Numbered from the stretch's first letter, positions 30,913 through 60,483 are shown. The stretch: 64,000 nucleotides of DNA from an uncultured Alphaproteobacteria bacterium (GCA_963792485.1 CAWBWL010000008.1:168871-232870); one strand, 5' to 3'. Made by a program: numbers and translations. The notes: generated by a model from the sequence alone, not told the origin.

Positions 30913-30987
30913 TTGGCATGTAGCTCAATGGTTAGAGCGCTGGCTTCAGGTGCCAGAGGTAATAGGTTCGAATCCTGTCATGCTGCC
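30913..30987 (+). tRNA. tRNA-like sequence 1 (canonical D-arm and T-arm, anticodon-loop TTCAGGT = CAG, short variable loop, imperfect acceptor)
   Basis: TAGCTCAATGGTTAGAGC D-arm; CTGGC/GCCAG anticodon stem; GGTTCGAATCC T-arm; CCA present at 30985-30987. A CAG anticodon on a class I scaffold is abnormal. Possibly a pseudo-tRNA, or a tRNA hit by the same indel problem. Confidence 0.35.
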
Positions 30988-30988
30988 A

Positions 30989-31062
30989 CTGCGAAATAGC
31001 TCAGTTGGTTAGAGCAACAGATTAAGGTTCTGTCGGTCGAAGGTTCGATTCCTTCTACGCAC
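30989..31062 (+). tRNA. tRNA-like sequence 2 (canonical D- and T-arms, anticodon-loop TTAAGGT, acceptor stem not pairable)
   Basis: TAGCTCAGTTGGTTAGAGC; ACAGA/TCTGT anticodon stem; GAAGGTTCGATTCCTTC T-arm. The 5-prime TGCGAAA cannot pair with the 3-prime TACGCAC. Confidence 0.3.
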
Positions 31063-33020: not shown

Positions 33021-35182
<2,162 letters not shown>

Positions 35183-37506: not shown

Positions 37507-37854
37507 GAGAGAAGTGTAGCAAAACTTGGGCGTAGAAACAAATGCCGGGCCAATGGCTTCAAAGGGGCTTCACGCGCCCCTGCCGCGTAAACCTTTCCCC
37601 GCCTTCCGCCGCCTTTCCCTGCACCGGTATCCCCCACACAGCGGCTTCCTCACTCTCCCTCACCGACATCGCGGATCAAGGCTGGTGCGGGATTTGACCT
37701 CTGTCCGGGGGATGAGATTTCAGCCAACGAAAATCTCTCGAATTTTTTATCCCAATCTTTTCAATGCCTTGTCAGATTTTTGGCTTCTTTCTTTGGAAAT
37801 TTCATCCCCGCCCTCAAAACCTCTCCCATACTCATGCCAGGAAAGGAGCGCGCG

Positions 37855-43056: not shown

Positions 43057-43401
43057 TCCAAACGCGTCCCGCCTGCCGCTTCCCCAAGCGGTTGAGGCGA
43101 TTTTGCACGCGCATATTTAACCCATGGTAATGCGAGAGCTTCAGATTTGGCTCGTGGTTAGCGCGGGATTAACAAACGTCAGGCTGTGATATCGGACAGC
43201 TGCGAAAAAAAGCCCGGCGCAAAGCCGGGCTTAAAGTTTTGGGGGCGCCGTTTCCAGCAAAACCTCCAGAGGGGAACACTCACGGAGCGCGGTGGGAGGA
43301 GGAGATGCGCTCCTGAGATCATTGTCAGGTATTTGTCCAGCTGCCTGTTTTCAATGCACGCTTTCGCATTTCAGCATTGCAAATTTGCCGAGGCTATGCC
43401 C

Positions 43402-56223: not shown

Positions 56224-56622
56224 ATGAACATGGGCCGGCTGATCGCATCTTCGTTTGTTCTCGCACTGACATCCTGCACCGTCGTGGTCGACGAGCCCGC
56301 GCCCGGCCCCGGCGTTTATCCGCCCCCGCCCGGCCCGCGCCCCGGAATCTGCACGCGCGAATACCGCCCGGTCTGCGCCGTGCGCCCCGGCGAGCGGCAA
56401 ACTTTTCCGAATGCGTGCGCAGCCGAAGCGCAAGGGTTCCGCATTGTCAACAGTGGCGAGTGCCGCCCGATCCGTCCGCCGCAATACGATGAAGGCCCGG
56501 TCGCATGCCCGCAAAACTACAGACCTGTCTGCGCGCGGCAGGGCAATCTGCTGCGCACCTTCCCGAATGAATGCCAGGCGGAAGGCTCGGGCTTCAGGGT
56601 GATTGACGATGGGGAGTGCTGA
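56224..56622 (+). CDS. Lipoprotein with two tandem Kazal-like domains
   Basis: Lipobox LALTSC. Two copies of C-x3-YRPVCA-x6-7-TFPN-x-C-x-AE-x-GFR-x5-GEC, which is the Kazal Cys spacing. Confidence 0.65.
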   Translation: MNMGRLIASSFVLALTSCTVVVDEPAPGPGVYPPPPGPRPGICTREYRPVCAVRPGERQTFPNACAAEAQGFRIVNSGECRPIRPPQYDEGPVACPQNYRPVCARQGNLLRTFPNECQAEGSGFRVIDDGEC

Positions 56623-57291
56623 ATCCGCCTGACAGTCATGGCGCATCCAGCAAATCCTGTTTGCGCACAATCGTCCGCAGTCCATCGACTCTTTGCGCGA
56701 CCGGCACAGACTGACCGACCTGGCAAGCCTTCCCCGTTACCACGCCCCGTTTCCGGTCTGGTCATTGAGGGGTAGTTGCAGGAAACAGGGTGTGTGGTCC
56801 TGCCTTCTGTAATTTTTGTATGTGGCATCGCCACACACCCTGCCAGTGTGCTTGCCCGGGGTGAGGGAACGCCGCACGCCGAAGACGGTGGGTTGACTGG
56901 GCGGCCGCACGAAGTGCCGCGCACTGGCCTCAGCTTGTCAAAGCTGAGACGGGCGCCCCGGCTGTGGAAGCCAAAACGCGCCAACCCGGATTCCGTCCTC
57001 AGGGCTGACCTACGCCCGTCCTCACCGGGGCCTGGTCTTGTGGCTCATCGCCAGCGGGACTGCCGACCTAATCCCGCTCACCAGCACCGCCGCCCTCCAC
57101 GACGCCCGGTTCGCGAACCGTGTCCCGCCAAGAGCGATGGGGCAAGTATCCATCAGATTTGGAGGCTGGGTATGAGATTTCGCAGACCACTTTATAAGCC
57201 ATTGAAAAGGCGTGGACTTATTTTTTCTGAGTGGATTTTTATCCCCCAATATTGAAGAAGCGGCACTGCGCGAGGAAACACGCGCCAAGTC

Positions 57292-57495
57292 TTAATCCAT
57301 CAGAATAAACGTCACCTTCAGATTGACGCGGTATTCGATGACCTTGCCGTCCCGGATCGACATTTTCTGGTCCTTGACCCAGGCGCTTTCGACATTTTTC
57401 AACGTCTTCACCGCCCGCGCCACGCCCTGCGCAATGGCATCGTCAAAGCTCTTGGTCGAAGCGGAAATGATTTCGGTGACGCGTGCGACTGACAT
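57292..57495 (-). CDS. Dodecin-family flavin-binding protein
   Basis: MSVARVTEIISASTKSFDDAIAQGVARAVKTLKN ... canonical dodecin. Confidence 0.85.
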   Translation of the reverse strand: MSVARVTEIISASTKSFDDAIAQGVARAVKTLKNVESAWVKDQKMSIRDGKVIEYRVNLKVTFILMD

Positions 57496-57701: not shown

Positions 57702-58094
57702 CTATGAAAGTTTTGCTCCAAGTTCGGTGCTTACTTCGACGGCGGCGTCGTCATCTGCTTCGCCATAACGCCGCGTGCAGGACGCGCCTTTCATAAACGG
57801 ATATCTCAGCAGGACCGGAGCCACCATTTTCAAAAGCGCGTCCGCATCCGGGCCGTAAAAATAGAAGGAGCCATCGCTGTTATCCATGGCGATTTCGTGG
57901 CCGTCATACTCGGCGGGAAAGGCTTCATGGAGAGCTTCGTCCAACTCAAAAAACGGGTCATCCGAAGGTAAGCCGTAACCGAACCGCACAATGAGCGCCT
58001 GCTTTGGTATATTCCGGATATCCGTCTCGCTTTGCCTCGATGACACTTCGGAGTCCGGGCCAAACCGGCCAAAAAGCTTAGATAAAATGCTCAT
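57702..58094 (-). CDS. Hypothetical protein
   Basis: Last gene of a three-gene minus-strand operon. No homolog recognised. Confidence 0.45.
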   Translation of the reverse strand: MSILSKLFGRFGPDSEVSSRQSETDIRNIPKQALIVRFGYGLPSDDPFFELDEALHEAFPAEYDGHEIAMDNSDGSFYFYGPDADALLKMVAPVLLRYPFMKGASCTRRYGEADDDAAVEVSTELGAKLS

Positions 58095-58168
58095 ACCCCA
58101 CCCGCCCCGCAACAGAATGCTTCGTCTCTATCAGAGCGTCAGCGCAGAACACAACTGCGAATTGGCCC

Positions 58169-59868: not shown

Positions 59869-59900
59869 GGCACGTTCGAATCAGCTTCTGGAGGAAAAAT

Positions 59901-59930
59901 GCCTCCCCCGTGCGGGCACGGGGGAGGCAG
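59901..59930 (-). terminator. Intrinsic terminator (on minus strand: CCTCCCCCGTGC-CCGC-ACGGGGGAGG followed by CATTTTTCC) between the small ORF and the SagB-like gene
   Basis: Perfect 12-bp GC stem followed by a T-tract in the direction of transcription. Confidence 0.6.
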
Positions 59931-59935
59931 GCGGG

Positions 59936-60031
59936 TCAGACCTTGTTGAACCTCATGCCGGGCTTCACGAAAATGGACAGGGACCTGCCCGCAGCAGGAG
60001 CGATCTTTGGGAGATGAATGGTCTTGGTCAT
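59936..60031 (-). CDS. Candidate 31-aa ORF (MTKTIHLPKIAPAAGRSLSIFVKPGMRFNKV) upstream of the SagB-like gene
   Basis: ATG preceded by an AAAAGG-type RBS. It is followed by the intrinsic terminator, then the SagB-like gene starts 68 nt after the stop. No Cys/Ser/Thr enrichment. Coding status unproven. Confidence 0.2.
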   Translation of the reverse strand: MTKTIHLPKIAPAAGRSLSIFVKPGMRFNKV

Positions 60032-60243
60032 TTTTTTGCCTTTTCTGGGTTGGGTTAACAACGACCTTTTTTAGTTGTGTATCTGCAATAGTTGCAACTT
60101 GAAATTGCTTCTTTACGTAAGGAAAATTTGCGCACGATCAGCGGCTCGTGTGCTGAATTCGCTTATTTCAGCGGTCAGTAGAATCGGTGCAAATACCAAA
60201 TTCGTAGAAGGGGAGAACTTCTATGAACAAGGGGTTAAAAAGA

Positions 60244-60455
60244 TGATTAACACAAATGCAAGAGAGCTAAAAGTCAACATATTCCCTTCGCCTAGCCTAT
60301 CGTCGAGCGTAATCCTGCAAGATATTGTTCGTGGCTTGAATGAAGCGAAAAAGTTCGCCGAAATGCATTCTGATCGGGAAATACTATATTTTATATCAAT
60401 GGCACTTCATTGCACCAAAGAGAAACTATTACTCTCTATATATGATAGTAATTGA
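60244..60455 (+). CDS. Hypothetical 70-aa protein in AT-rich islet
   Basis: GC about 35% in a roughly 62% GC background. RBS AAGGGG before ATGATTAAC. Divergent from the XRE regulator gene. Confidence 0.3.
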
Positions 60456-60483
60456 GTGCATGATCAAAGTATTAGGAGATTTT

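Follow-up and report, generated by a model that had tools for sequence, protein, structure and literature searches.

In the genomes of rhizobia, intergenic repeats number in the dozens; both their sequence and their secondary structure are conserved, their function is unknown, and they confound the prediction of small RNAs (sRNAs) (PMC2573895). The element described here resembles its closest counterparts among such repeats (rhizobial RIME1/RIME2, Sm-repeats, and AB/C palindromes, and enterobacterial REP/BIME) in being dispersed, intergenic, palindrome-rich, mosaic in build, and of unknown function. RIME-type palindromic units are approximately 100–200 bp long and occur in mosaic combinations. 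In contrast, the element spans approximately 330–510 bp, contains a five-helix covarying domain of constant length, and shows strand-specific G·U pairs. A second likeness is to the trans-acting sRNAs of alphaproteobacteria, such as ar14 and ar15/AbcR, which are also intergenic and structured, end in a hairpin, and have several paralogues per genome; however, the RNA of the element is 2–3 times longer and matches no Rfam model, its near-identical copies number up to 15 or more and interrupt assemblies, and close relatives differ in whether they have it.

PATE-like IS605 omega-RNA elements, IS110 bridge-RNA regions, and MITEs share with the element that they are short, protein-less, multi-copy, and polymorphic for insertion, and that RNA or single-stranded DNA (ssDNA) structure is central to them. 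The element differs from these RNA-bearing insertion sequence (IS) derivatives and MITEs in that it has neither terminal inverted repeats nor target duplications and no similarity to known RNA families, and from the IS derivatives also in that no TnpB, IscB, or DEDD recombinase is linked to it at its 12 complete copies. Bacteria have few structured RNAs of more than 300 nt, the majority of which have proved to be ribozymes, scaffolds, or guides. Among these, raiA, ROOL, GOLLD, and OLE resemble the element in exceeding 300 nt, in containing multiple covarying helices, and in having no known function and no linked protein, but they are single-copy or phage-borne and widespread, whereas the element is narrow in its distribution and behaves as a repeat. 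At least 15 near-identical copies in one genome, a patchy presence among close relatives, and no linked protein gene set it apart from other large RNAs.

The locus lies in a window of 64,000 nt, which is the whole stretch of DNA analyzed here, between the genes for a Kazal-domain lipoprotein and a dodecin. An earlier sequence-only reading had singled out this gap as an unusually long, GC-rich, non-coding block between convergent genes and as a candidate structured RNA. The block measures 669 nt, exactly from stop codon to stop codon, and its length is indeed unusual: no other gap in the window is as long according to a crude gene map based on GC3, in which the other convergent gaps measure 0–381 nt. 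The description as GC-rich, on the other hand, has to be dropped, as the block contains 60.1% GC compared to 59.7% in the window; inside the block, the left 518 nt reach 64% and the right 151 nt only 46%. The complementary segments quoted in the same reading are real, with GGTGTGTGG (56789–56797) and CCACACACC (56831–56839) inside a perfect 12-bp stem and CTCAGCTT and AAGCTGAG forming an 8-bp hairpin (Table 1).

The block was correctly called non-coding. None of its frames has a Pfam match, the stop-free pieces of the six frames have no match at E ≤ 10 among 5.8 billion proteins, back-translated ORF probes gave no match in genome and metagenome contigs, and the spurious ORFs of the block and of the MAG copies described below matched no record when used as protein probes. 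A degraded ORF, which the sequence-only reading had named as the finding that would speak against an RNA, was not detected by BLASTX-type searches (Pfam, tblastn with ClpS, and the six-frame search). We therefore regard it as very improbable that the block is a decayed protein-coding gene, such as the clpS gene that is present in this gap in two relatives. Weak codon-position GC periodicity in two 120-nt intervals would be in keeping with such a gene, but tblastn with the ClpS proteins of these relatives finds nothing in the block, the Pfam and six-frame searches (E ≤ 10) are empty, and a non-coding repeat accounts for most of the block.

The junction was compared in relatives, defined as contigs that encode homologues of the Kazal protein at 72–79% identity and in which the gene order BA14K-EamA-Kazal-dodecin-DUF922 is retained. 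In eight of them (L014–L017, L020, L021, L023, and L024) only 3 nt separate the stop codons of the Kazal and dodecin genes, and in two (L018 and L019) clpS occupies the Kazal/dodecin gap. The DNA homology of the window to the syntenic relatives breaks exactly at 56622 and resumes at 57292/3. Because the relatives have either a 3-nt gap or clpS and homology ends at the gap edges, the whole 669-nt block is, by this comparison, a lineage-specific insertion. The notion of a unique conserved intergenic RNA had to be abandoned, as most relatives have an empty orthologous gap. The junction itself is an indel hotspot, occupied by 3 nt in eight contigs and by clpS in two, whereas the window and L022 have the repeat element there.

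L022, a syntenic metagenome contig, holds the element at the same site, in the tail that follows the Kazal stop codon. It is 97% identical to the window over 39 nt (56729–56767, module A) and 87% identical over 78 nt (56781–56857, the big hairpin), whereas its flanking genes are only 74–78% identical to those of the window and are thus less conserved than the shared pieces of the element. According to EamA identity, L022 is nearest to L021, in which the site is empty, and the window is the outgroup to all relatives; there must therefore have been more than one gain or loss of the element at this site.

Contigs of the same species (99.6–99.9% identical to the window) contain both ends of the block, but its interior is never assembled. 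These contigs end at 57220/1, 57275, and 56753. The stops of the Logan contigs at 57220/1 were considered as a boundary of the repeat, and this was rejected, as the stops lie 29–30 nt from strain SNPs and thus represent k = 31 bubble ends; the SNPs that bound the bubble ends are at 57250, 57274, and 56723. In the two ends of the block that these contigs cover (56623–56768 and 57182–57291), SNPs are approximately 5-fold denser than in the genes on either side (6/256 nt vs. 20/4569 nt, p = 0.002). Five of the six block sites (57243, 57250, 57251, and 57274 in the right spacer, and 56723) fall in spacers outside the element, one (57212) falls in the upstream region of the element, and none falls in the structured RNA.

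The repeat family was found by a pattern scan (CAGGGTGTGTGG-N20-45-CCACACACCC) of one genome per species. The hairpin pattern together with the element is present at 26 contigs or loci of three Rhizobiales MAGs: 15 contigs of the Phyllobacteriaceae VAR_69_metabat_408, eight of the Phyllobacteriaceae OTE_70b_metabat_404, and three of the Rhizobiaceae JTS-AC116. Many of these copies are approximately 40–300 nt from the end of a contig, with a flank that is unique to each, and several are identical across the hairpin and its surroundings; this position at contig ends is the signature of near-identical repeats that break the assembly. In all, 12 copies are fully assembled and 14 lie at contig ends (13 of the 15 VAR_69 copies are cut off in this way), and alignment of the 12 shows a common non-coding element of approximately 330–510 bp. 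One of three alternative end modules (A, B, or C) is followed by small hairpin inserts that are not always present, by the big hairpin, which is invariant, by a middle part in which two subtypes (type 1 and type 2) differ, and by a conserved far end. Module A was seen only when attached to copies of the element.

An nhmmer profile built from 23 MAG copies matches the core of the block with E = 5.2e-34. The alignment contains two insertions specific to the window (approximately 56853–56935 and 56995–57026), and blastn of the window against the MAG copies covers 56726–56855. Because the profile match extends over 56729–57239, most of the 669-nt block is, by homology, one diverged copy of the dispersed element. 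A second copy of the block or the element was not found inside the 64-kb window by a repeat search or with a covariance model. Of ten complete copies, at least six are located between convergent stop codons, sometimes 0–40 nt from both, and a co-directional gene, which is dodecin in the window, often lies upstream and ends 0–500 nt away. The element thus behaves as a dispersed repeat, both in occurring at many loci with unrelated flanks and in its presence or absence at an orthologous site (empty in eight contigs, filled in the window and L022).

Searches of plasmid, phage, and viral collections gave no match to the block or to the full copies, and the JGI metagenome contigs, a collection that lacks the L022 contig, gave 0 matches to a long exact pattern present in L022. 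The distribution of the family appears to be narrow, with very few genomes from a few Rhizobiales lineages. No description of the element was found in the literature, which was searched both for its sequence and for the topic. No transposase-size ORF was found beside it at the 12 fully assembled copies, no inverted repeats pair its two ends, and no target duplication is visible when filled and empty junctions are compared. A MITE was tried as an identity and rejected, as terminal inverted repeats and a target-site duplication were not found and the ends are mosaic (modules A/B/C).

Two further observations concern the words and neighbors of these copies. The hairpin words CAGGGTGTGTGG...CCACACACCC also occur in approximately 25 Amycolatopsis contigs (L027, L028, L030, L033–L035, and others) and in three Ktedonobacter contigs (L025, L047, and L052). 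These matches have only the hairpin words in common with the element, and they may represent an unrelated conserved GT-rich hairpin of those genera. In addition, a second, REP-like repeat, a perfect 15-bp palindrome (TTTAACCTCGCCCCGCAAGCGGGGCGAGGTTAAA), lies beside several of the MAG copies (L029 1726–1759; flanks of L046, L049, and L051).

We consider it probable, at roughly 70%, that the 669-bp gap is an insertion and that its core has diverged in sequence but kept the structure of a dispersed and probably mobile repeat, which encodes an RNA with multiple helices. The repeat belongs to related soil bacteria of the Phyllobacteriaceae and Rhizobiaceae. The predicted RNA would be approximately 360 nt long on the minus strand of the window (approximately 290–420 nt in other copies) and would run from the −10-like box through Ha/Hb, the three-way junction (Hj, H3, and H4), and the variable domain to the terminal hairpin and UUUCC. 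The features of the window copy are listed in Table 1.

Table 1. Features of the Kazal/dodecin gap and of the element copy within it (positions in the window; parts of the element are read in the minus-strand sense)
Feature	Positions	Strand	Basis and details
Kazal-domain lipoprotein gene	56224–56622	+	Pfam Kazal_1 and Kazal_2; left flank of the gap; two Kazal domains
Whole intergenic block	56623–57291		Stop to stop; lineage-specific; ORF and Pfam analysis, homology breaks in syntenic relatives
Left spacer	56623–56728		No homology to other copies or relatives
Diverged copy of the repeat element	56729–57239	− (RNA sense)	nhmmer profile, blastn
Module A (ACCACGCCCCGTTTCCGGTCTGGTCATT)	56729–56767	−	One of three alternative end modules; 97% over 39 nt to L022
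Terminal long hairpin, then UUUCC	56781–56842	−	12-bp stem, 56831–56842 with 56786–56797, plus inner stem UGCC/GGCA
Variable-length middle domain	56843–57026	−	Alignments, nhmmer insertions; includes the hairpin at 56929–56948
5′ structured domain (helices Ha/Hb/Hj/H3/H4)	57027–57156	−	R1 match, covariation, MFE fold
Three-way junction	57032–57084	−	Hj, 57080–57084 with 57032–57036; H3, 57072–57078 with 57053–57059; H4, 57050–57052 with 57042–57044
Helix Ha enclosing Hb	57091–57136	−	Ha, 57130–57136 with 57091–57097; Hb, 57119–57122 with 57098–57101
Conserved upstream motifs	57145–57175	−	−10-like hexamer, 57145–57150; box, 57170–57175
Right spacer	57240–57291	−	Polymorphic among same-species contigs; small hairpin just downstream of the dodecin stop codon (GCGCG 57268–57272 pairs with CGCGC 57281–57285)
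Dodecin gene	57292–57495	−	Pfam Dodecin, E = 1.5e-23; right flank of the gap; lies 150 nt upstream of the predicted RNA and in the same direction

The sequence-only reading had ascribed extensive secondary structure to the block. For the plus strand, on which it had been proposed, this does not hold (z = −0.73 vs. shuffles), and the local folding energies of this strand are ordinary compared to those of shuffles and of other 669-nt tiles of the window; for the minus strand it does, with z = −2.72 for the whole block. The delimited RNA, 56775–57140(−), has z = −3.95, and 0/100 shuffles fold as well. The minimum free energy (MFE) fold of this RNA alone contains Ha, Hb, Hj, H3, H4, the long variable domain, and the terminal hairpin. 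The RNAalifold energies of the family are also lower in the minus sense of the window than on the other strand, at −85.9 versus −61.1 kcal/mol for type 1 and −114.9 versus −95.9 kcal/mol for type 2.

A covariance model (R1) was built from eight type-1 copies only, in which Ha, Hb, H3, and H4 were assigned by hand as its four helices; the window sequence was excluded. R1 matches the 5′ domain of the window copy, 57027–57156(−), at full length (37.2 bits, E = 5.7e-8), and it also recovers three type-2 copies, which were absent from model building, at 30–36 bits. Plain MAFFT alignment followed by RNAalifold misaligned the variable hairpin of the mixed subtypes and gave a weak consensus; the covariance-model alignment was used instead, and covariation was counted on its 14 rows (14 copies including the window). 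On this alignment, which is fitted to the structure of the model and thereby favors pairing, whose helices were first drawn from type-1 sequences, and which represents approximately 5–6 independent lineages or subtypes (three MAGs and the window), 99.6% of the 282 cells of the four helices are paired and 16 of the 22 pairs show double changes, values reached by 0/500 shuffles. Controls with slid partners are 44–52% paired, and the covariation score is 0.52 compared to 0.06–0.11 in the slid controls. When Hj is added, pairing is found in 98.0% of 347 cells and double changes in 19/27 pairs (again 0/500 shuffles), while the slid controls are 40–54% paired and the score is 0.47 compared to 0.05–0.11. 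Compensatory changes thus exceed both the shuffle and the slid-partner controls, as is expected of structured RNAs in general. The alignment also contains 45 G·U cells, and 99.6% of cells pair in the minus sense compared to 84% on the opposite strand.

Changes on both sides affect five of the seven pairs of Ha and one of the four pairs of Hb, with 100% of cells paired, and double changes affect all seven pairs of H3 and three of the four of H4. Hj closes the three-way junction with CUUUG/CAAAG in type 1 and with CUGGU/ACCAG in the window. The length of the 5′ domain is nearly constant (130 nt in the window, 130–134 nt across copies). The middle domain, in contrast, is approximately 65 nt long in type 1, 95–160 nt in type 2, and approximately 185 nt in the window, where it forms a self-contained long irregular hairpin in the MFE fold. 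No module of the family is more conserved than the terminal hairpin, which resembles a terminator; it shows strand asymmetry, with A-U and G·U alternating at stem pair 2, and its inner stem varies among GCC/GGC, GUC/GAC, and GUC/GGC.

The window copy retains every helix of the family. That each helix is kept through compensatory changes of its own argues that this copy is under selection for its fold and is not decaying, and we infer that selection acts on the RNA fold. The structure is conserved, with compensatory changes, across the copies of the family. The proposal of a structured RNA stands in a modified form: the compensatory changes and the non-coding nature of the block speak for it, but the RNA lies on the minus strand, occupies approximately 360 of the 669 nt, and belongs to a copy of a dispersed repeat.

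A −10-like hexamer lies upstream of Ha in all copies (GATACT in the window, CATAAT in most others), and further upstream is a box that reads TCATAC in the window and TTATCC(A)C in most copies. The spacing between hexamer and box is fixed at 19 nt in 13/13 complete copies, and a second TTATCC(A)C-type box is located approximately 65 nt further upstream. From their sequence and spacing, these conserved boxes look like a regulated promoter. A scan with the sigma70 consensus gave no promoter on the RNA-sense strand. At the other end, nothing more than UUU(U)CC, a short U-tract, comes after the terminal hairpin. Transcription of the RNA would start at a promoter of the element itself, or the RNA would form the 3′ untranslated region (UTR) of the upstream co-directional gene, which is dodecin here; since the upstream neighbor is often a co-directional gene, it could equally be a 3′-UTR product.

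The sequence-only reading had found no consensus motif of RNase P, tmRNA, SRP, or 6S by eye, and Rfam 15 agrees, with no match in the region at the gathering threshold. At E ≤ 10, the block yields only chance hairpin matches. Ten loci with full MAG copies, as well as two copies searched at E ≤ 10, matched no family of this set, which includes riboswitches, the group II intron, HEARO, ar-sRNAs, and IS605-related motifs. A housekeeping RNA or any other Rfam family was rejected as an identity, as none scores at the gathering threshold. A hammerhead-like or group II-like reading of the motifs UGAUGAG and GUGUG was likewise rejected, as type-2 copies do not conserve these motifs and the reading has no Rfam support. 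The element family, missing from Rfam, is a candidate for a new structured-RNA family of approximately 290–420 nt.

Several explanations compete with a mobile repeat that specifies an RNA, or specify it further. A REP/BIME/RIME-like intergenic mosaic repeat without a stand-alone RNA, whose hairpins act in cis as a bidirectional terminator, as an mRNA stabilizer, or as ssDNA sites for a trans-acting transposase, would have much in common with the element. Dozens of structured intergenic repeats are known from rhizobial genomes (PMC2573895). The element, too, is intergenic, often between convergent genes, and has a mosaic build (modules A/B/C and optional small hairpin inserts), and its G·U pairs have a counterpart in the G·T wobbles that are possible in ssDNA. 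We nevertheless hold this explanation to be unlikely: a five-helix domain of constant length (130–134 nt) that contains a three-way junction and shows compensatory changes in each of its helices goes far beyond what a terminator or a REP hairpin needs, the element is 3–5 times the size of RIME, and its conserved unpaired motifs and the upstream box at fixed spacing suggest a transcription unit. A type I toxin-antitoxin-like locus, in which a highly structured mRNA encodes a small toxic peptide, seems hardly credible, even though the element is multi-copy, approximately 400 nt long, strongly folded, and intergenic; the possible 25-aa ORF (MIRVNVAKAGALVA...) after GGGA in type-1 copies is missing from the type-2 and window copies, varies in length, and is not hydrophobic throughout, and the two subtypes and the window copy have no small ORF in common.

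Two further explanations place mobility in the foreground. The repeat might be the non-coding end of a longer IS, for example of the IS110/IS1111 type with a bridge/seek RNA or of the IS605 type with an omega RNA, in which case the window copy and the complete short copies would be solo or miniature derivatives. The absence of an adjacent transposase-size ORF at 12/12 fully assembled copies, the empty Rfam result despite the inclusion of HEARO and IS605-related motifs, and an RNA of approximately 300–400 nt, which is longer than bridge RNAs (approximately 180 nt), make such an origin rather improbable. Yet it would agree with the 13/15 VAR_69 copies that are cut by contig ends and whose full length is unseen, with an RNA that reads toward one boundary of the element and has a strong hairpin at its end, and with a conserved structure that fits a guide or scaffold RNA; terminal inverted repeats are absent from the element, as they are from the IS110 and IS605 families. 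Of the 26 MAG copies, the 12 that are complete have no recombinase or nuclease gene beside them, and neither does the copy in the window. Alternatively, the element could be a protein-less mobile RNA element with the RNA as its mobility determinant, for example one that is retro-mobilized in a SINE-like manner or a stand-alone guide or scaffold that recruits a recombinase encoded elsewhere. This would explain selection on the fold in a selfish, recently amplified repeat, and we regard it as doubtful.

As for what the RNA of the mobile repeat does, we give the most weight, though well short of even odds, to a role in the spread or maintenance of the element itself, in which the RNA would guide an enzyme whose gene lies elsewhere or be its scaffold. 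It is almost as likely that the repeat instead carries a family of host trans-acting regulatory RNAs, and a mainly cis-acting role as a terminator or mRNA-end element is rather doubtful; the remaining weight falls on other functions. Copies of the repeat would persist between convergent genes because insertion there is harmless, and the big hairpin may double as a terminator between such genes. An RNA that serves the spread of the element would represent a new kind of RNA-centered mobile element, and one that serves the host would represent a new multi-copy riboregulator family in Rhizobiales. Long, seemingly "empty" gaps between convergent genes in such genomes can hide unannotated RNA-bearing repeats, and these repeats fragment metagenome assemblies.

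Some observations concern other parts of the window and its neighborhood. An ORF of 130–136 aa without a Pfam match, 57702–58112(−), lies between the dodecin and DUF922 genes; it is missing in L014–L017, and L020 has a 121-aa ORF in that position. In an ENA contig (L009 5–164), a 99%-identical dodecin is fused to a 79%-identical nitroreductase-like segment and the intervening genes are skipped, so that either the genes are arranged differently there or the contig is a chimera. The crude gene map contains two further gaps of more than 600 nt (59869–60483 and 33498–34105), neither of which matches the profile or model of the element. The start of an ORF at 37789–37834(−) gives a weak nhmmer match (E = 0.005) to the upstream GGAT..ATG..GGAGG module of the element, which may be due to chance. 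The Rfam gathering matches in the window are an ar15 (AbcR-type) sRNA at 43205–43319(−) and two adjacent tRNA genes at 30914–30986(+) and 30990–31062(+).
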